Virus record (IMG/VR): IMGVR_UViG_3300045988_003672
Location: 1-5,665 of that record
Direction: 5' to 3' (one strand)
Length of the DNA: 5,665 nt
Origin: a virus
The notes beneath the pieces were generated by a model. It was not told the origin of the DNA, made no database searches, and saw only the letters and a program-made list of their open reading frames with translations. Of this stretch, positions 1-5,665 are shown in pieces (the first letter of the stretch is position 1; every line of letters begins with the position of its first letter). The translations under genes and the position numbers were made by a program.

Positions 1-55
1 AGCAATCCTCAACAAAGAAATCTATGCACAGGGCAACACGACAGATGAAGAGGCA
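1..55. repeat. Terminal redundancy (copy 1), identical to 5611-5665. This is the overlap left when a circular genome or contig is linearised.
   Basis: Direct reading shows agcaatcctcaacaaagaaatctatgcacagggcaacacgacagatgaagaggca at both ends. The repeat lies inside the capsid reading frame and preserves it. Confidence 0.95.
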
Positions 56-340
56 TTCGGCTATCAGGAAGCATGGGCCGACTACCGGTATAAACCGAGC
101 AAGGTTACCGGACTGTTCCGAAGCAACGCACAACAGAGTCTCGATGCATGGCACTATGCACAGGACTACGACGCACTGCCCACGCTGAGTACGGCATGGA
201 TGGAGCAGAACGATACCGAAATGAAGAGAACACTTGCGGTACAGTCTCAACCAGACTTTATCGCAGACTTCTACTTTATGAACAAAACAACCAGATGTAT
301 GCCGGTGTACAGCATTCCCGGCCTCATCGACCATCACTAA
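1..340 (+). CDS. Major capsid protein VP1 (F-like), C-terminal part. It continues from 5665 across the circular junction. Base 1 is the third base of a codon, the in-frame codons start at 2, and the stop TAA is at 338-340.
   Basis: The frame from base 2 is open to TAA 338-340. It reads [39 protein letters not shown]...[15 protein letters not shown], a typical Microviridae VP1 C-terminus. It is contiguous in frame with 4280..5665 once the 55-nt duplicate is collapsed. Confidence 0.9.
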
Positions 341-351
341 AGAAAGGAGAC

Positions 352-379
352 AGCCGGGGACAAAACCCCGGCTATTTTT
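352..379 (+). terminator. Rho-independent terminator downstream of VP1.
   Basis: An 8-bp GC-rich stem pairs agccgggg (352-359) with ccccggct (366-373). The loop is acaaaa and the stem is followed by aTTTTT (374-379). It starts 12 nt after the VP1 stop. Confidence 0.75.
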
Positions 380-383
380 GAAA

Positions 384-1238
384 ATGGCAATACCAGCCTT
401 TTTAGGAGCCTTATCAACAGGCGCGAAAATACTGGGCGGAGTAAGCGGCCTCATAAACGCCGGAACAGGCATCTTTAACGCACTCAAAGGCACATCAGGC
501 AGTGGCAGCACATCAGCCGACAGTTACAACAGCGCACACGGCGAAGGCGGCTCTAGCATGACCAGCGAAAGCGGAGTAAACATGGACCAGACAAAAGAGC
601 TGGCAAAATACTTTCTGGGGCAGAGCCAACAAGCACAGGGCATGCAGAGCATGCAAAACAACAAAAACTCTCTCCTGGCACTGGGCTTAAACACTCTGGG
701 AGCTATCCAGCAGGGCGTTTACAATCGTATCCAGCAGGACGCGGCAATGTCCTACAACTCCGCAGAGGCAGCAGCTAACAGAGCGTGGCAGGAGCGTATG
801 AGTAACACAAGCTATCAGAGGGCAATGGCCGACATGAAAAAAGCCGGCTTAAATCCAATACTGGCGTATCAGCAGGGCGGAGCAAGCACACCGGGAGGAG
901 CACAAGGCACAATCGGGCAAAGCAGTATGAGCGCGCCGAGTGTCGGAACACAGTCGGCAAGTATGCCGACAATCTCCGGCACAACCGCAAACTACTCGAA
1001 AACCAAAGCGGAAAGTTGGAACTGGACAGACTCAAGCGGAGAAATGCACAGTAGCGGTTACAACAGCTATCAGACGGACTTTCCAGACTTAACCGGATGG
1101 CTCAACCAAAACAACAACAGCGGCAAAAAAGCCGGAAGCAACACGGTGGACGCGCTAAGCGGAGCTGACCACAAAGCAAAAAGCGGCAAAGTGCCAAATC
1201 TTAATCCGATGAACAAATATATTAACGGAGGTAAATAA
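384..1238 (+). CDS. VP2 minor capsid / DNA pilot protein (H-like), 284 aa from ATG 384. The ORF track starts it at TTG 378.
   Basis: The N-terminus is Gly-rich and hydrophobic ([31 protein letters not shown]). The conserved gokushovirus VP2 core [29 protein letters not shown] is present. The rest is Gln/Ser/Asn-rich low complexity. The gene sits directly after VP1, as in Gokushovirinae. Confidence 0.8.
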
Positions 1239-2261
1239 ATGAGCTGCGCAAGACCACTCATCAGAGTATACAATCCAAATGACCACAACATAACAGGGTC
1301 AATCATGACTCTGGAAACGTACCGCGAAAGAACACACAATCCAACAGCAACTTATGAGAGTATCGCATACCGAACAGACGTAATGCTCCTACCATGCGGT
1401 AAATGTCTCGGGTGCAGACTCAGACAACGACAAGACTGGGAAACAAGAATGCTAATGGAGTCAAAAACACTAACGCCAGTGTGGTTTTTGACCCTAACGT
1501 GGAATCAAGAATATGTGCCGGGTATGGTAAGAGCAACAGGCGAAATCATAAGAGGTGCAGTACATCAGTGGACGACCGGAGACGCACCGGAAGTGGTGCA
1601 AATTCTCCTACAAGAGGACATGGTACGCTTTAACAAGAGGCTGAGGAAAAAACAAGAAACGTCCAATAAATGGGGCTTAGACCTGAGATATTTTTACTGT
1701 GGCGAATACGGCGAAAACACGGGAAGACCACATCATCACGGCATTTATTATGGTTTGGAGATACCAGACCTCAAGAAAAAAAGGGGTGATAATCCGTACT
1801 TCGAAAGCGAAGAGATAAACAAAATATGGGGCATGGGTAACGTCATCATCGCAGAGGCATCGCCGGAAACGATGGCTTATGTAGCAGGATATGTAACCAA
1901 AAAGACATACGGCAACGACAACAAAAGGTATAGGGAGTTAGGTTTAACACCGCCGTACTGTTGTATGTCAAGGAATCCGGGTCTGGGCTATGACTACTAC
2001 ACGAGCCATAAAGAGCAGATGTACGCAGATGATGGGCTATACTTTAACGGTAAAAAAAGGCCAATACCGAGGTACTTTGATAAAAAGTATGAGAGTGAGC
2101 GGCCAAAAGAGCTATGGGAGACAAAGCGCAAGAGACAAGAGAGTGCAATCAATGCACTAAAGCTCAAAATGAGCAATACAGGGCTGACCATCGAACAGGA
2201 AGCAAAGGTAGAAGAAGAGACAAAACGACAGAGGTTTAGAAAAGCCAGAGGGCTATTATAG
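1239..2261 (+). CDS. VP4 replication initiation protein (HUH rolling-circle endonuclease), 340 aa.
   Basis: The start abuts the VP2 stop (TAAATG) and GGAGG at 1227-1231 lies 7 nt upstream. Motifs seen: N-terminal MSCARPL, Cys cluster PCGKCLGCR, motif 1 FLTLT (1485-1499), HUH-type PHHHG (1728-1742), and the two-tyrosine motif YVAGYVTKK (1878-1904). Confidence 0.92.
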   Translation: MSCARPLIRVYNPNDHNITGSIMTLETYRERTHNPTATYESIAYRTDVMLLPCGKCLGCRLRQRQDWETRMLMESKTLTPVWFLTLTWNQEYVPGMVRATGEIIRGAVHQWTTGDAPEVVQILLQEDMVRFNKRLRKKQETSNKWGLDLRYFYCGEYGENTGRPHHHGIYYGLEIPDLKKKRGDNPYFESEEINKIWGMGNVIIAEASPETMAYVAGYVTKKTYGNDNKRYRELGLTPPYCCMSRNPGLGYDYYTSHKEQMYADDGLYFNGKKRPIPRYFDKKYESERPKELWETKRKRQESAINALKLKMSNTGLTIEQEAKVEEETKRQRFRKARGLL

Positions 2262-2266
2262 TGTCA

Positions 2267-2303
2267 GTGGGCCTAATCCTATCAAGGAGAGGATTAGGCC
2301 CAC
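2267..2303 (+). other. Perfect 14-bp stem with a 9-nt loop immediately after rep. It is a candidate origin or ssDNA structural element, or a terminator lacking a T-tract.
   Basis: gtgggcctaatcct (2267-2280) pairs perfectly with aggattaggcccac (2290-2303). The loop is atcaaggag. It begins 6 nt after the VP4 stop and no U-tract follows. Confidence 0.7.
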
Positions 2304-2347
2304 ACCCAAGCTTCACAGTTATCCATGGTTAACTTAAATAATCTGAC

Positions 2348-2371
2348 AAGGGGGGACAAAAGTCCCCCCTT
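2348..2371 (+). other. 10-bp G6/C6 hairpin, followed by a second small G/C hairpin at 2380-2393.
   Basis: aaggggggac (2348-2357) pairs with gtcccccctt (2362-2371) around the loop aaaa. The hairpin shares the 10-mer ggggacaaaa with the VP1 terminator hairpin (356-365 and 2352-2361). gcccc/ggggc at 2380-2393 forms a 5-bp stem. Confidence 0.65.
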
Positions 2372-2432
2372 GCGTGTACGCCCCCCAAGGGGCTACCGCA
2401 GAAAAACGGAGTTACGAGCTATAACATACAGG

Positions 2433-2468
2433 CATACGCGCACGCGCGAAACACGCACGCACGCACGC
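2433..2468. repeat. Alternating pyrimidine-purine CG/CA tract including (ACGC)4, bracketed by a 7-bp inverted repeat and followed by a T-run.
   Basis: catacgcgcacgcgcg (2433-2448) and cacgcacgcacgcacgc (2452-2468) both alternate Y-R strictly. tacaggc (2427-2433) pairs with gcctgta (2467-2473), and attttttatttt follows. Confidence 0.7.
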
Positions 2469-2528
2469 CTGTATTTTTTATTTTATAATATAACTTGTTG
2501 TAGCCGTAGTAATAGGGGCTGTGGAAAA

Positions 2529-2712
2529 GTTGAAAACCATAAATTTGAAACGCAACATCATAAAAAAAAAGAATATTTCATTGTTGAAAGATTTGTTAAA
2601 AACTTGTTGAAATGTTGAAACACTTTACCAGGCTAAAATCTATTGCGTATAACGATGTTGAAAAGTATGTTGAAAATGTTGAAAAGCATAAACTTTCCAC
2701 AAAGTGTTGAAA
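2529..2712 (+). repeat. Iteron-like array of 8 same-orientation copies of GTTGAAA, 7 of them as TGTTGAAA(A), in an AT-rich block.
   Basis: The exact copies are at 2529-2536, 2582-2589, 2605-2612, 2613-2620, 2656-2664, 2668-2676, 2677-2685 and 2704-2712. Degenerate copies are TTGTTGtag 2495-2503, TTTGAAA 2544-2550, TGTTaAAAA 2594-2602 and TTTGAAt 2714-2720. An A9 tract lies at 2562-2570. I did not find the exact 7-mer anywhere else in the window. Confidence 0.85.
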
Positions 2713-2723
2713 ATTTGAATTAA

Positions 2724-2813
2724 AGGCAGTCCGACGAGCGAAACCGGAAAGTCACGTCATGCTCTTCGCACGGCGCACCGCGCCTACCGCATGACATTCA
2801 AGGCAAAGTCCGA
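2724..2813 (+). other. GC-rich structured island with nested inverted repeats, flanked by an imperfect direct repeat.
   Basis: gtcatgc (2756-2762) pairs with gcatgac (2789-2795). This encloses ggcgc (2772-2776) paired with gcgcc (2780-2784). The flanks are aggcagtccga (2724-2734) and aggcaaagtccga (2801-2813). A T7 run lies at 2820-2826. Confidence 0.5.
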
Positions 2814-2836
2814 TAAAACTTTTTTTCAAAAACCTC

Positions 2837-2865
2837 TTGACAAAATAGAAAAAGTATGGTATAAT
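2837..2865 (+). promoter_or_regulatory. Consensus sigma70-type promoter with an extended -10 element.
   Basis: TTGACA (2837-2842) is followed by a 17-nt spacer ending in TG (2857-2858), then TATAAT (2860-2865). The upstream flank is A/T-rich (aaaactttttttcaaaaa). The predicted transcription start is near 2872, ahead of the SD agagagg (2876-2882) and ATG 2891. Confidence 0.8.
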
Positions 2866-2890
2866 GCAAACAGAAAGAGAGGTAAGAACC

Positions 2891-3076
2891 ATGAAAGCAA
2901 GATCCTTATGGCACCTCAGTCCTGAGGCCATCAAAGAGCTGTACGAAATCGGAATCTACGATACAAAAAAGTACAGGTACGTACAAGACAAGTGCGACGG
3001 CGAAATATACCGCATCGAAAAAGACCTCTTAGGAACAACAGAAGCACTCGACCCGGAAAACTGGATAAAGCAGTAA
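2891..3076 (+). CDS. Hypothetical small protein (61 aa), first gene after the consensus promoter.
   Basis: MKARSLWHLSPEAIKELYEIGIYDTKKYRYVQDKCDGEIYRIEKDLLGTTEALDPENWIKQ. The SD agagagg lies 8 nt upstream. The ATG at 2864 used by the ORF track sits inside the -10 box, upstream of the predicted transcription start, so it is unlikely to be used. I recognise no family. Confidence 0.55.
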   Translation: MKARSLWHLSPEAIKELYEIGIYDTKKYRYVQDKCDGEIYRIEKDLLGTTEALDPENWIKQ

Positions 3077-3117
3077 AAGAGGGATTGACAAGCCCCTTTT
3101 TCAAATACAACAAAAGC

Positions 3118-3135
3118 AAAAAAAAAGGGGGGGGG
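3118..3135. repeat. A9G9 double homopolymer in the leader of ORF 3141..3347.
   Basis: There are nine A (3118-3126) followed by nine G (3127-3135), then ataaa and ATG 3141. The A/G junction reads as an extended SD-like AAGGGGG. Confidence 0.9.
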
Positions 3136-3140
3136 ATAAA

Positions 3141-3347
3141 ATGTACGATAGAGCATATTATGAGCTGTATAAAGGATACAGAGGGCCAGAAACACCAGAC
3201 GAATGTGAATACTTCATTCGAAAGCTTTACAGGCAGCTCAAAAGAGCGTATACTGTAGAGGAGGCGAAAGCCATCATAGAAGAAATTTACAAATACAAAG
3301 GCCAAAAGGCAGAAATGGAGTTGAAGCAATGGCAATCATCAGTGTGA
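3141..3347 (+). CDS. Hypothetical small protein (68 aa), predicted helical and rich in Tyr, Lys and Glu.
   Basis: MYDRAYYELYKGYRGPETPDECEYFIRKLYRQLKRAYTVEEAKAIIEEIYKYKGQKAEMELKQWQSSV. The purine-rich SD ends 5 nt before the ATG. I recognise no family. Confidence 0.55.
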   Translation: MYDRAYYELYKGYRGPETPDECEYFIRKLYRQLKRAYTVEEAKAIIEEIYKYKGQKAEMELKQWQSSV

Positions 3348-3472
3348 AGGAAATCAAGAACGCCATCAAAATCATGATGGACATTCTCGAGAAGCTGGAC
3401 GAAATTTATCACGCGCTGCACGACAAGGAGGATGACAGCAATGGCAAAACGCACGAAGATGACCAGCAGTAA
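3329..3472 (+). CDS. Possible small acidic protein (47 aa). It falls below the ORF-track size cutoff.
   Basis: MAIISVKEIKNAIKIMMDILEKLDEIYHALHDKEDDSNGKTHEDDQQ*. GGAG (3317-3320) lies 8 nt upstream. The ORF overlaps the end of the previous ORF by 19 nt and the start of the next by 32 nt, which fits microvirus-style packing. Confidence 0.35.
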   Translation: MAIISVKEIKNAIKIMMDILEKLDEIYHALHDKEDDSNGKTHEDDQQ

Positions 3473-3560
3473 AGACAAAAAGGTCTTTACCCAGACGGCA
3501 AAAAAGACAAAAGCCGTCAACGTCAGCCCGAAGAACATGAGAGGAGGCACCAGACTGTAA
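3441..3560 (+). CDS. Small basic DNA-binding/packaging protein (J / VP8-like), 39 aa. Not in the ORF track.
   Basis: MAKRTKMTSSKDKKVFTQTAKKTKAVNVSPKNMRGGTRL*. It is Lys/Arg-rich and ends in the ...MRGGxRL pattern typical of gokushovirus ORF8-type proteins. AAGGAGG (3425-3431) lies 9 nt upstream. Confidence 0.7.
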   Translation: MAKRTKMTSSKDKKVFTQTAKKTKAVNVSPKNMRGGTRL

Positions 3561-3802
3561 TGCTGAGACATTATTATGCAATCTATGACAAGGTGGCCAA
3601 GACCTTCAGCGGCCTTTTCGAGCAGCAGAACGATGCAGTTGCAAGCAGGCTCTTCGAAAGCCAGCAGAAGAACAAGGACAGCTTTATCAGCGTCAAGCCG
3701 GAAGACTTCCAGCTGCACTACATCTGCACCATGGAGGACGAGACCGGCGAAATCGTCGATAACGTCAACACGTGCGTATGTGAGGGCAAACCCAATGAGT
3801 GA
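3560..3802 (+). CDS. Conserved gokushovirus non-structural protein (VP5-like), 80 aa.
   Basis: The start overlaps the previous stop (TAATG). The pattern YAIYDKVAKTFSGLF..ND.VA.R.F....K.S....PEDFQL..I....DETGEI matches the small protein found between VP4 and VP3 in many gokushoviruses, as I recall it. Confidence 0.6.
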   Translation: MLRHYYAIYDKVAKTFSGLFEQQNDAVASRLFESQQKNKDSFISVKPEDFQLHYICTMEDETGEIVDNVNTCVCEGKPNE

Positions 3803-4283
3803 GTTTCGGAGCGCGTACAGCGGACAGGTAAGACATACGAGCCTGACCGGCAACGGCCGTGAACCTGAGTATGAGTACAAGGTAACGGAAGAAGGCCGGG
3901 AGCTGGTAAAAACCGGCGAAACAGACGTCTATGCACTCATCCAGAGCCGTCTGGATGAAACCAAAATCGAAAACATCATCAAGCGGGCAACATACGACCC
4001 GACTGCACTGGGCAGTCAGGACTGGCAGACCAGCGAGACGATAACCGATATTTCGGACGCGCCGACAAACTATCACGAGTGGTATGGGCGTATCAAAGAC
4101 GCGGAAGCGGAGTTTGACAAGCTGCCCATCGAAATCAAAAACAAGTGGGACAACGATGTGGAAAAATACATCATGGCCTACGGAACCCAAGAGTGGGCAG
4201 ACAAAATGGGCATAGCAAAGCAGAAAGCCGAGGCAGAAAAACCGGCTGAAAAACCGGCTGAAAAAAGTGAGGTGAAAGAATGA
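3795..4283 (+). CDS. VP3 internal scaffolding protein, 162 aa from ATG 3795. The ORF track extends this frame upstream to 3576.
   Basis: MSEFRSAYSG...DISDAPTNYHEWYGRIKDAEAEFDKLPIEIKNKWDNDVEKYI... matches the conserved VP3 core (AE.EFDKLP.EIR.KFDND.EKF). GAGGG lies 8 nt upstream. The stop overlaps the VP1 start (ATGA, 4280-4283). Confidence 0.8.
   Translation: MSEFRSAYSGQVRHTSLTGNGREPEYEYKVTEEGRELVKTGETDVYALIQSRLDETKIENIIKRATYDPTALGSQDWQTSETITDISDAPTNYHEWYGRIKDAEAEFDKLPIEIKNKWDNDVEKYIMAYGTQEWADKMGIAKQKAEAEKPAEKPAEKSEVKE
4236..4266 (+). repeat. 12-nt tandem repeat (2.6 copies) encoding (EKPA)n at the VP3 C-terminus.
   Basis: gaaaaaccggct occurs at 4236-4247 and 4248-4259, followed by gaaaaaa at 4260-4266. 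The protein reads AEKPAEKPAEKSE. Confidence 0.85.
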
Positions 4284-5665
4284 ACCGCAACAGTGAATAC
4301 AGCTTTGCACAAAATCCGCAGGTCGGAGTAAGCCGCAGCCGATTCCAGCGCAACAGCGACAACAAAACGACCTTCAACACGGGCGACCTCATCCCGGTCT
4401 ATCTAGACGAGGTGCTTCCGGGTGATACGCACCAAGTAGACGTTGCCTGTGTGATGCGAATGGCAACACCCATCTTCCCGGTGATGGACAACGCCTTTTG
4501 CGACTTTTACTTCTTCTTCGTACCTAACCGCTTGCTCTGGGAGCACTGGAAGGAGTTTATGGGCGAGAACAAGGAAACAGCATGGACGCCTAAGACAGAG
4601 TACAGTGTGCCACAGGTGACGGCACCAACAGGCGGATGGGCAGAAGGTACGCTGGCAGACTATCTGGGACTGCCCACCAAGGTCGAAGGCATCAGCGTAA
4701 GCGCTCTGCCCGGTCGAGCATACGGCCTAATCTACAACGAGTGGTTTCGAAACCAAAACGTCACGCAGCCGACGCTCGTAGAGGTGACGGACGCAACGAC
4801 GACCGGCAAAAACGACGGCAGCGCTACCAACGACAGCGCTATCACGCTGGCAAAACCTCTTAAAGCAGCGAAGGTGTTTGACTACTACACCGGAGCTTTG
4901 CCGGAGCCGCAGAAAGGCGAGCCGATTACCATTCCGCTGAGCGGTAACGCGCCCATTAAAAGCTACCTAAACCAAGAAATGACAATACCAGCCGCCGTAA
5001 TTAAAACCGGCAGCTCATACACTACGACCGGCTGGCCATGGGATATCAACGGCAAAGCATACCTGTTCCAAAACAACATAGACGGAACGGCAACGATGAC
5101 AGGCCAAACTAAAAGCGGAACCTCTTTTGGCGATAAAGTCGACGGGCAAACAAGCGACATAGCCTTCTTGGGAGCCGACCTTGGAGCAGTAACAGCGGCG
5201 ACCATCAACCAACTCCGACAGGCATTCCAGATCCAGAAACTGCTCGAAAAAGATGCACGAGGCGGCACGAGATACCGCGAGGTACTGCGCGAGCACTTCG
5301 GAGTTATCTCTCCTGACTCTCGTATGCAGATTCCGGAGTATCTGGGCGGCTACAGACTACCTATCAACGTGTCTCAGGTTATCCAGACCTCTTCGACCGA
5401 CGGCACGAGTCCGCTGGGCAACACAGCGGCGCTAAGTGTGACCACAATGAACAAACCCATGTTTACCAAGTCCTTTACCGAGCATGGCTTCATCATGGGT
5501 CTGGCAGTCGTCCGTACCGACCAGACCTATCAGCAGGGTATCGAGCGCATGTGGAGCCGCAAAGGCCGGTATGATTACTACTGGCCTGTACTGGCAAACA
5601 TCGGCGAGCAAGCAATCCTCAACAAAGAAATCTATGCACAGGGCAACACGACAGATGAAGAGGCA
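4280..5665 (+). CDS. Major capsid protein VP1 (F-like), N-terminal 462 codons. It runs off the window end and continues at base 2. The full protein is 556 aa.
   Basis: I translated this frame by hand from ATG 4280 and found no stop through 5665. Motifs: MNRNSEYSFAQNPQVGVSRSRF...TFNTGDLIPVYLDEVLPGDT, GRAYGLIYNEWFRNQN, DYYTGALPEPQKG, and INQLRQAFQIQKLLEKDARGGTRYREVLREHFGV. A variable insertion of about 85 aa (residues ~221-305) sits between conserved blocks, as in the gokushovirus surface loop. Confidence 0.93.
   Translation, partial: MNRNSEYSFAQNPQVGVSRSRFQRNSDNKTTFNTGDLIPVYLDEVLPGDTHQVDVACVMRMATPIFPVMDNAFCDFYFFFVPNRLLWEHWKEFMGENKETAWTPKTEYSVPQVTAPTGGWAEGTLADYLGLPTKVEGISVSALPGRAYGLIYNEWFRNQNVTQPTLVEVTDATTTGKNDGSATNDSAITLAKPLKAAKVFDYYTGALPEPQKGEPITIPLSGNAPIKSYLNQEMTIPAAVIKTGSSYTTTGWPWDINGKAYLFQNNIDGTATMTGQTKSGTSFGDKVDGQTSDIAFLGADLGAVTAATINQLRQAFQIQKLLEKDARGGTRYREVLREHFGVISPDSRMQIPEYLGGYRLPINVSQVIQTSSTDGTSPLGNTAALSVTTMNKPMFTKSFTEHGFIMGLAVVRTDQTYQQGIERMWSRKGRYDYYWPVLANIGEQAILNKEIYAQGNTTDEEA
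5611..5665. repeat. Terminal redundancy (copy 2), identical to 1-55.
   Basis: The 55-nt identity to the window start was read directly from the sequence. Confidence 0.95.

Follow-up and report, generated by a model that had tools for sequence, protein, structure and literature searches.

What does an array of short direct repeats do in the genome of a small single-stranded DNA phage? The question is raised by the IMG/VR virus record IMGVR_UViG_3300045988_003672, which we analysed over positions 1 to 5,665 and call the window. The window is a complete circular gokushovirus genome of 5610 nucleotides (nt), whose last 55 nt are a copy of the first 55, with a GC content of 48.8%. The heptamer GTTGAAA is repeated eight times in a non-coding stretch behind VP4, the gene of the replication initiator (rep). 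The initial annotation of this locus proposed a multimeric protein-binding platform and offered several ligands: Rep, a host factor or DnaA-like initiator, or one of the small proteins encoded downstream. A platform in the non-coding region and a DnaA-like loading site agree with what we find; a Rep bind locus and a small-protein operator do not. We propose that the array is a phage-borne version of the chromosomal origin module of the host, made of DnaA boxes, DnaA-trios and a duplex-unwinding element (DUE), and we put the probability of this reading at about 0.62. Judged from its sequence, the repeat is a DnaA-box variant, TGT[T/G]GAAAA, of the Oscillospiraceae type, present in about 12 boxes.

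The eight exact copies, counted as in the initial annotation, all lie on the + strand (2529, 2583, 2606, 2614, 2657, 2669, 2678 and 2706) and span 184 bp (2529-2712). Outside this span GTTGAAA is absent from both strands of the window. By chance the whole window would hold 0.69 copies on average and four at most (200 dinucleotide-preserving shuffles). Degenerate copies accompany the exact ones at 2520-2528, 2594-2602 and 2713-2721, plus one inverted copy at 2693-2701. Counted from the T of TGTTGAAA, the near-tandem sub-clusters start at 2605/2613 and at 2656/2668/2677, as had been annotated. The remaining landmarks are also in place: an A9 tract at 2562-2570, a low GC content (27-36% across 2450-2750), a position between rep (VP4 stop at 2261) and the early promoter (2837-2865), and the motif AACTTG at 2492-2497 and 2601-2606, both times inside the 9-mer AACTTGTTG. 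Read as 9-nt boxes, the array is organised as follows.

2520-2536, + strand: box cluster A, TGTGGAAAA at 2520-2528 (1 mismatch to the canonical TGTGGATAA) and AGTTGAAAA at 2528-2536, starts 8 nt apart
2582-2621, + strand: box cluster B, TGTTGAAAG at 2582, degenerate TGTTAAAAA at 2594-2602, TGTTGAAAT at 2605 and TGTTGAAAC at 2613
2656-2685, + strand: box cluster C, three copies of TGTTGAAAA at 2656, 2668 and 2677
2693-2721: distal boxes, inverted CTTTCCACA at 2693-2701 (- strand: TGTGGAAAG), TGTTGAAAA at 2705-2713 and degenerate ATTTGAATT at 2713-2721

Six boxes with at most 2 mismatches to the canonical one lie within 2475-2720, compared to a mean of 1.1 and a maximum of 6 in local shuffles. 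By itself this count is only suggestive; the case rests on relatives and hosts.

As a single strand the array folds no better than its shuffles (z = +0.9). The whole non-coding stretch reaches z = -5.9, owing to flanking GC hairpins. Since the array is unstructured as a single strand, it should act on the duplex replicative form. A hairpin of DnaA boxes serving as complementary-strand origin was rejected for the same z value; the 8-bp inverted pair 2520/2694 is too weak and not universal. We also rejected the repeats as promoter -35 elements (TTGAAA), because no -10 element stands at the proper spacing except in weak 9-of-12 hits. An Rfam scan of the whole window (E ≤ 1) gave only a chance hit of a microRNA model on a GC hairpin.

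Next to the array stands a core of distinct parts. From 5' to 3' on the + strand these are a GC hairpin with a T-run, an AT-rich 27-mer, TAACTTGTTG, the trios, GGGC, TGTGGAAAA and AGTTGAAAA.

2471-2497: candidate DUE, the least stable 27-mer genome-wide, 2 G/C in 27 nt
2491-2500, + strand: TAACTTGTTG, which together with the next TAG makes the phage-specific motif TAACTTGTTGTAG
2501-2515, + strand: DnaA-trios TAG CCG TAG TAA TAG, that is, 3'-GAT-5' as read on the + strand
2516-2519: spacer GGGC, 4 nt between the trios and the first box

The nearest-neighbour free energy of 2471-2497 is -24.5 kcal/mol versus a genome mean of -36.5 (standard deviation 3.2). These parts resemble the basal unwinding system (BUS) of bacterial origins, where DnaA boxes in tandem are followed, across a GC-type spacer of about 4 nt, by three or more DnaA-trios (3'-GAT-5') and then by an AT-rich element (PMC8287927; PMC7561715; PMC10201434). 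The published search rule asks for a box that departs from TTATCCACA (or from a species-specific box) by no more than 2 mismatches and stands 0-16 nt from the trios, and for a second tandem box with no more than 4 mismatches (PMC8287927). The trios, at least three in a row on the strand that fits the box, have the general form NAN; their definition is 3'-[G/A]A[T/A]-5', preceded by a GC cluster (PMC7561715). The first box of the window (TGTGGAAAA, 2520-2528), 4 nt away from the trios, deviates at 1 position. The second (AGTTGAAAA, 2528-2536) starts 8 nt later; it is of the host type and differs from the canonical box at 3 positions. The trios closest to the first box, TAG TAA TAG at 2507-2515, have the orientation found in host dnaA-dnaN regions, the spacer is conserved in length and variable in sequence, and the AT-rich element stands on the far side of the trios. 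At the level of sequence, the module has everything that the BUS layout prescribes.

Taken as written, the published rule finds 22 hits in the window, and it also lets 96% of shuffled genomes through. Because it does not discriminate outside a predefined origin, we used a stricter test: a box with at most 1 mismatch, a spacer of 3-5 nt and three [T/A]A[G/A] trios. The window passes this test, compared to none of 300 genome shuffles and 0.25% of the shuffles of the non-coding stretch. One feature of a chromosomal oriC, its place beside dnaA and dnaN, is missing: the element lies between VP4 and small open reading frames (ORFs) of a 5610-nt phage genome. Hence we speak of an origin-like module on a phage and not of an oriC.

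Which bacteria use such boxes? A scan of 185,579 species genomes, in search of GTTGAAA in three copies close together, returned unrelated tandem repeats plus contigs of metagenome-assembled genomes (MAGs) of Oscillospiraceae type. Arrays adjoin dnaA in five MAG loci, labelled L139, L176 and L243 (Oscillospiraceae), L204 (Ruminococcus sp.) and L216 (Negativibacillus sp.). Adjacency was determined by tblastn, with Pfam for L176 and L204. On the opposite side dnaN follows in four of these five loci, and the order is dnaA-array-dnaN wherever a contig contains both genes. Their cores read:

L176, array at 1586-2329: (TAG)5-GGGG-TGTTGAAAC-TGTTGAAAA
L139: (TAG)5-GGGG-TGTTGAAAC, then GGTGGAAAA
L204, array at 6478-8000: (TAG)5-GGTA-TGTTGAAAC-TGTGGAAAA
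L243, array at 1628-2496: TAGTAGTAATAG-GGGG-TGTTGAAAC-TGTTGAAAA
L216, array at 2831-3540: (TAG)6-TAA, then a weaker TGTGAAAAA box

The core with T-type boxes (GTTGA) is thus limited to the first four. A further 15-35 T-type and G-type (GTGGA) boxes follow in L176, L204 and L243, on both strands in L176 and L204. Box starts are 8-12 nt apart, with a mode of 11. The orientation of boxes relative to trios is the same in host and phage, which makes the match independent of the model systems. The origins of these Oscillospiraceae, Ruminococcus and Negativibacillus are filled with TGTTGAAAA (TTTTCAACA) boxes.

The DnaA proteins of L176 and L204 carry changes of their own. Their recognition helix reads RDHSTIVYS, versus RDHTTV(I/L)HA in Escherichia coli, Bacillus subtilis and Aquifex, and the proline of LPEIG is also replaced. 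In E. coli numbering the changes are T435S, H439Y and P423V/A. They concern three of the six DnaA residues described as base-specific and as conserved among the Firmicutes analysed there (PMC7561715). Such changes are consistent with a shifted box consensus in these bacteria, and together with the origins they suggest that Oscillospiraceae use a family-specific DnaA box, TTTTCAACA, instead of the canonical TTATCCACA. We found no published description of such a family-specific consensus. A similar core (TAATAGTAG-GGG-TGTTGAAA) with 10 boxes in 500 nt occurs in one further locus, L164, at about 7218, where a contig binned as Anaerolineae ends. Either this contig is mis-binned or T-type boxes extend beyond Oscillospiraceae, which touches the specificity of any host prediction.

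Is the module kept in other phages? A remote BLAST search with the non-coding stretch matched 58 phage records, many of which have no other nucleotide similarity to the window. In 14 of 15 GenBank genomes, 3-9 GTTGAAA copies cluster directly after VP4 on the coding strand. With pattern scans of IMG/VR added, about 160 microvirus-size contigs from independent studies carry the module at the same genomic position. Among the carriers, VP1 is 44% identical to that of the window in the median (minimum 39%; query shortened to 457 amino acids) and VP4 45% (minimum 32%). Aligning the non-coding regions of relatives, a check put forward in the initial annotation, shows that box positions are conserved in about 100 loci, that orientation is nearly uniform and that spacers drift. 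The boxes form three clusters at constant positions throughout.

This conservation bears on the idea that VP4 binds the repeats as iterons, so that they would form the bind locus of a double-strand origin for rolling-circle replication, like those of pMV158 and of circular Rep-encoding single-stranded DNA (CRESS) viruses. The short repeats of one orientation beside rep, with a phiX-like AACTTG at the edge of the array, speak for such a locus. However, the motif stays identical across VP4 proteins that are 32-45% identical to that of the window, and it is also the motif that fills host chromosomal origins between dnaA and dnaN. There is no hairpin or nick loop in or beside the array (z = +0.9 as above), the trios stand at a fixed distance of 4 nt, and sister clades with a homologous Rep do not have the repeats. 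We therefore regard Rep iterons as highly improbable.

The same alignments count against a passive fragment of a host origin, or an assembly chimera, that has no function at all. Its motif content is indeed host-like. Yet the module occupies the same position in about 160 genomes from independent studies, box positions are kept while spacers drift, and similarity to the sampled host origins is limited to matches at the level of boxes, with no extended nucleotide homology. Besides, microvirus genomes are limited in size. We give this explanation next to no credence. Recent capture from a host was rejected as well, since BLAST against host origins gave box-repeat matches only.

The sequence of the boxes is informative too. 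The site consensus is T-G-T-[T 83% / G 17%]-G-A-A-A-[A/G] in 99 loci, where the variants include 88 copies of TGTGGAAAA and 20 of the canonical TGTGGATAA. As first box these loci most often have TGTGGAAAA, TGTTGAAAT or AGTGGAAAA, as second box most often GTTGAAAAC. T-type and G-type boxes interchange at one array position between relatives, and positions of the array read TGTGGAAAA in some relatives and TGTGGATAA in others. The phage loci L006, L009, L010 and L066 carry TGTGGATAA or TGTTGATAA, and TGTGGATAA is the canonical DnaA box on the other strand. In the 99 loci TGTTGAA occurs 634 times in the 300 nt past the trios, compared to 12 times in the remaining 5.3 kb or so; its reverse complement occurs once. 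Start-to-start spacing in 161 phage arrays is almost only 8, 9, 11 or 12 nt, and genomes hold about 10 boxes in the median. Some relatives also have an inverted G-type box at the place that it takes in the window.

Position 4 of the repeat helps to judge another alternative. The array could be an operator, either for a small downstream phage protein or for a host factor such as Spo0A, whose box TGTCGAA differs from TGTTGAA by one base. The array does lie upstream of the strongest promoter of the genome, and many Oscillospiraceae form spores. Position 4, however, is T in 1020, G in 222, A in 2 and C in only 1 of about 1245 sites. A position that is almost never C excludes the Spo0A box. As for phage proteins, the downstream ORFs differ between relatives, the array does not, and none of these ORFs hits a DNA-binding family. 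An operator would also leave the geometry of trios, spacer and DUE unexplained, and we consider it very unlikely.

The best-conserved part of the module is precisely this core. An AT-rich tract stands at the DUE position in all relatives. In 148 unique loci the spacer keeps a length of 4 nt (3 nt in one subgroup) while its sequence drifts (GGAG, GCAA, GGGC, AGTA, AGGT and others), and the three box-proximal trios are TAG or variants that keep the central A (TAA, CAG, GAG). One close relative, KT264799 (L005; 92.5% identical to the window over the aligned 79%), has lost the distal boxes and retained, at 3531-3590, the AT-rich tract, (TAG)5, GGAG and two boxes (TGTTGAAATGTTGAAT). Unrelated sequence with different small ORFs has taken the place of the early promoter region and of the distal two-thirds of the array in this genome.

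The core matters for the question whether the boxes do more than bind DnaA. The phage may only need a sink or a sensor: the replicative form would soak up DnaA, or phage development would be tied to DnaA-ATP, with no opening of the DNA and no helicase loading. The numbers fit: each genome has about 10 boxes, the molecule is present in multiple copies during infection, and the majority of the boxes stand far from the trios. Multicopy plasmids with origin-derived DnaA-box regions are known to inhibit initiation in B. subtilis. But a sink can do without trios, without a DUE next to them and without a spacer fixed at 4 nt, and these are the most conserved parts; the core moreover survives the loss of the distal array in KT264799. 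Nor does any box overlap the promoter, which starts 124 nt past the last one. Conservation of the core and its survival in KT264799 favour an opening function over mere titration, and we find a sink or sensor on its own unlikely. As a side effect, titration of DnaA by the multicopy replicative form would probably occur in any case.

How would a host-origin-type module serve the phage? Motifs, geometry and conservation, together with identity to host origin motifs, can be read directly from the genomes; from these we infer binding of DnaA, opening of the DNA and the later steps. The incoming single strand would be converted to the double-stranded replicative form, on which host DnaA-ATP would occupy the boxes. 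Starting from boxes 1 and 2, DnaA would oligomerise onto the trios of the + strand and open 2471-2515. The bubble would then admit the loading pathway of the host, in Firmicutes DnaA, DnaD, DnaB and DnaI with the DnaC helicase, and primase. The replicative form could be supported in two ways, by helicase and primosome loading for complementary-strand synthesis or by theta-type copying. In B. subtilis it is the trio strand that the first helicase is believed to surround (PMC10201434). The trio strand in the phage is the viral strand, and helicase loading there would prime the complementary strand. In phiX174 this priming is the job of the PriA primosome site.

The edge of the putative bubble carries a motif that is not found in the host origins examined. 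Among 64 unique sequences picked solely by TAGTAGTAG-N4-TGTGGAWAA, 62 contain TAACTTGTTGTAG; the other two, which have canonical boxes, are pieces of 28- and 95-kb contigs and not microviruses. Host origins have neither TAACTTGTTG nor TAACTTGTTGTAG, and the trio beside TAACTTGTTGTAG is free to vary. A motif that is nearly invariant within the clade, absent from host origins and adjacent to a variable trio points to a site that is specific to the phages and borders the bubble. Speculatively, TAACTTGTTG is a candidate nick or recognition site of VP4, or else it consists of distal trios. VP4 is the obvious candidate because AACTTG is shared with the nick region of phiX174. A 6-mer match is weak, though, and the sister microvirus clades have neither TAACTTGTTGTAG nor a conserved AACTTG.

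If the bubble exposes the invariant TAACTTGTTG to the VP4 nuclease, as it may, the locus would be a hybrid origin, a host-type DnaA module fused to a rolling-circle nick site (TAACTTG/TTGTAG at the bubble edge) in a large clade of gut gokushoviruses. Host DnaA would then melt the DNA for the phage HUH nuclease. Alternatively, the module would sustain a theta-mode episome coupled to the cell cycle, a carrier state. We hold the hybrid origin only tentatively and think it possible but doubtful. If true, the chromosomal initiator would be an obligatory, host-specific cofactor of a single-stranded DNA phage.

Several points weigh against a host-origin-type module. For one, the phage has a rolling-circle initiator of its own. 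Sister clades, with VP4 proteins of 31-39% identity, do without the module: repeats and trios are absent there, and in most cases the non-coding stretch is too. Microvirus replication in general therefore does not require it. The starts of boxes 1 and 2 are separated by 8 nt in the phages, compared to 9 nt in the hosts, and the one-base overlap might hinder double occupancy. The published search rule, passed by nearly all shuffled genomes, is very permissive. Many boxes would be explained equally well by a pure DnaA sink. On the host side, TTTTCAACA is taken as the DnaA box from its location and number, and the host assignment relies on MAG bins, with one similar core in the Anaerolineae-binned L164.

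Modules of this kind also occur on larger IMG/VR contigs of 16-46 kb (L407, on the reverse complement at about 1486; L362 at about 3045; L389 at about 9883; L406 at about 2740; L333; L386). They are canonical, with (TAG)3-4, 4 nt, TGTGGATAA and more boxes, and some stand directly upstream of an ORF. They could belong to phage-plasmids or double-stranded DNA phages whose origins depend on DnaA. Three loci from contigs of 95-160 kb (L329, L337, L393) look like chromosomal origins within contigs labelled viral.

The rest of the genome is laid out as follows.

4280 wrapping to 340: VP1
378-1238: VP2, pilot protein
1239-2261: VP4/rep, replication initiator (PHROG replication initiation protein, E = 1e-103)
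2262-2890: non-coding stretch of 629 nt, from the VP4 stop to the first ORF behind the consensus promoter; it holds the array
2267-2303, + strand: stem-loop just past the VP4 stop, 17-nt arms, 94% complementary, in minimum-free-energy and centroid folds
2429-2471, + strand: GC-rich hairpin with T-run, alternating purine/pyrimidine (CGCA/CGCG), 20 pairs of which 12 are G-C, in the centroid fold
2716-2795, + strand: 80-nt element of two hairpins, AATTAAAGGC...GTCATGC...GCATGAC, the second enclosing GCGCACCGCGC
2837-2865, + strand: sigma-70-type promoter, TTGACA-17 nt-TATAAT with TG before the -10, 12 of 12 consensus matches
3560-3802: VP5
3' end at 4283: VP3, scaffold
In addition: four small ORFs without family hits

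The stem-loop at 2267-2303 is conserved in the phage loci L001, L004 and L005. It is terminator-like, and in relatives without the next two hairpins a T-rich run follows it directly. The hairpin at 2429-2471 forms the 5' boundary of the AT-rich element, and relatives have one of the same kind, with a different sequence, at the same position. It is likely the terminator of the VP1-VP2-VP4 transcript; it could also be the boundary of the melted region, a tract prone to Z-DNA or cruciforms, or a single-strand origin. The 80-nt element is found in 29 of 162 module-bearing loci, is almost invariant there (88% identity in otherwise divergent genomes) and is not part of the universal module. Its first hairpin varies with pairing kept (CCGGCGAGCGAAACCGG versus CGGCAGTCAGCCG). 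It is a candidate complementary-strand origin, small RNA or Rep site.

The promoter points away from the array, towards the variable small ORFs. Behind it, 2866-3560 is a region of variable cargo, with small ORFs lacking family hits in the window and a peptidase M15 gene in some relatives. Genomes with the module are larger (about 5.3-6.1 kb) than those of sister clades (4.4-5.3 kb). An ORF of 97 amino acids that overlaps the array region (2325-2618) was rejected: it has no family hit and is absent where relatives lack the middle hairpins. Two repeats lie further downstream. At 3117-3134 an A9 run is followed by G8 (caaaaaaaaaggggggggataaaATG) just upstream of an ORF start at 3141. This pair coincides with the expected position of the ribosome-binding site and is for that reason a possible slippage-prone expression switch. 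A 12-nt direct tandem duplication (gaaaaaccggct gaaaaaccggct) occupies 4236-4262, near the 3' end of the VP3 scaffold gene.

What would a DnaA module in a microvirus mean? The replication of microviruses is understood almost wholly from phiX174, with its nick site in gene A, the Rep helicase and the PriA primosome. We know of no rolling-circle single-stranded DNA phage with a full module of boxes, spacer, trios and DUE. Searches of full text for DnaA, DnaA box or oriC together with Microviridae, microvirus or gokushovirus, in a scope that leaves most subscription journals outside, returned no report, and our literature search found none of DnaA boxes in rolling-circle origins. Searching for the 9-mer itself brought up nothing but spurious matches to primers. 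If true, our reading means that a rolling-circle phage can start its replication, or support it, by another route.

The module may also be of practical use. Box variant and trio arrangement match the origins of Oscillospiraceae, Ruminococcus and Negativibacillus, so that hosts could be predicted from non-coding DNA; here the module predicts a Gram-positive gut host. Phages with the module are common in the faeces of humans, pigs, dogs and monkeys. Microviruses of Gram-positive bacteria were barely known in 2022 (PMC9239249). The shifted DnaA box of Oscillospiraceae (TTTTCAACA) would be a result on the bacterial side. A module of 250 bp is also a compact candidate for building replicons or DnaA-titration tools in gut Clostridia that are hard to manipulate.

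How does the module compare to known systems? The bind locus of pMV158 and the iterons of CRESS viruses likewise consist of short repeats of one orientation near rep. Unlike them, the phage repeats do not co-vary with Rep, have no nick hairpin and carry the motif of the host's initiator. Titrating clusters such as datA also hold many boxes in a short span, and both could sequester DnaA. Sites of the datA type need no trios or DUE at a fixed spacing, whereas in the phage these are the best-conserved parts.

The origin of phiX174 covers about 30 nt inside gene A, with the nick region CAACTTG^ATA. Of the 30 nt of a phiX174-type origin (CAACTTG^ATATTAATAAC) the window shares only the 6-mer AACTTG, and its module stands in an intergenic region and not within rep. 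Should the module bring helicase and primase onto the viral strand, it would take the part of the phiX174 primosome site by other means: the phiX174 primosome uses PriA and a single-strand hairpin, the phage module would use DnaA and duplex DNA.

Mobile elements that recruit host DnaA through boxes are known from the theta origins of P1 oriR, F, pSC101 and RK2. These also have iterons for an initiator of their own, use DnaA as an accessory and do not replicate by rolling circle; in our phage no theta-type initiator is evident. To our knowledge, no theta origin of a plasmid or phage has been described with the full module of box, spacer and trios.

Bacterial BUS modules, such as DnaA-boxes 6 and 7 with trios in incC of B. 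subtilis or oriC2 of Clostridioides difficile, have the same parts in the same relative orientation. The trio tract of C. difficile, read on the other strand (TAGTAGTAATAGTAGTAG), is much like that of the phage (TAGTAATAG). In contrast to these two, the phage module sits on a 5.6-kb single-stranded DNA genome with a rolling-circle Rep and not by dnaA and dnaN, its boxes are mostly T-type and nearly all in one direction, and boxes 1 and 2 start 8 nt apart instead of 9-12 nt. In B. subtilis and C. difficile the unwinding module lies between dnaA and dnaN, as do the arrays in four of the five host MAG loci. The host origins differ from the phage module in having boxes on both strands and longer AT-rich regions, in the absence of TAACTTGTTG and in showing no extended homology to it. 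What they share is the module itself: L139, L176, L204 and L243 have the same box variant (TGTTGAAAA or TGTGGAAAA), (TAG)n, a 4-nt spacer and a spacing of 8-12 nt, and L216 has the trios with a weaker TGTGAAAAA first box.

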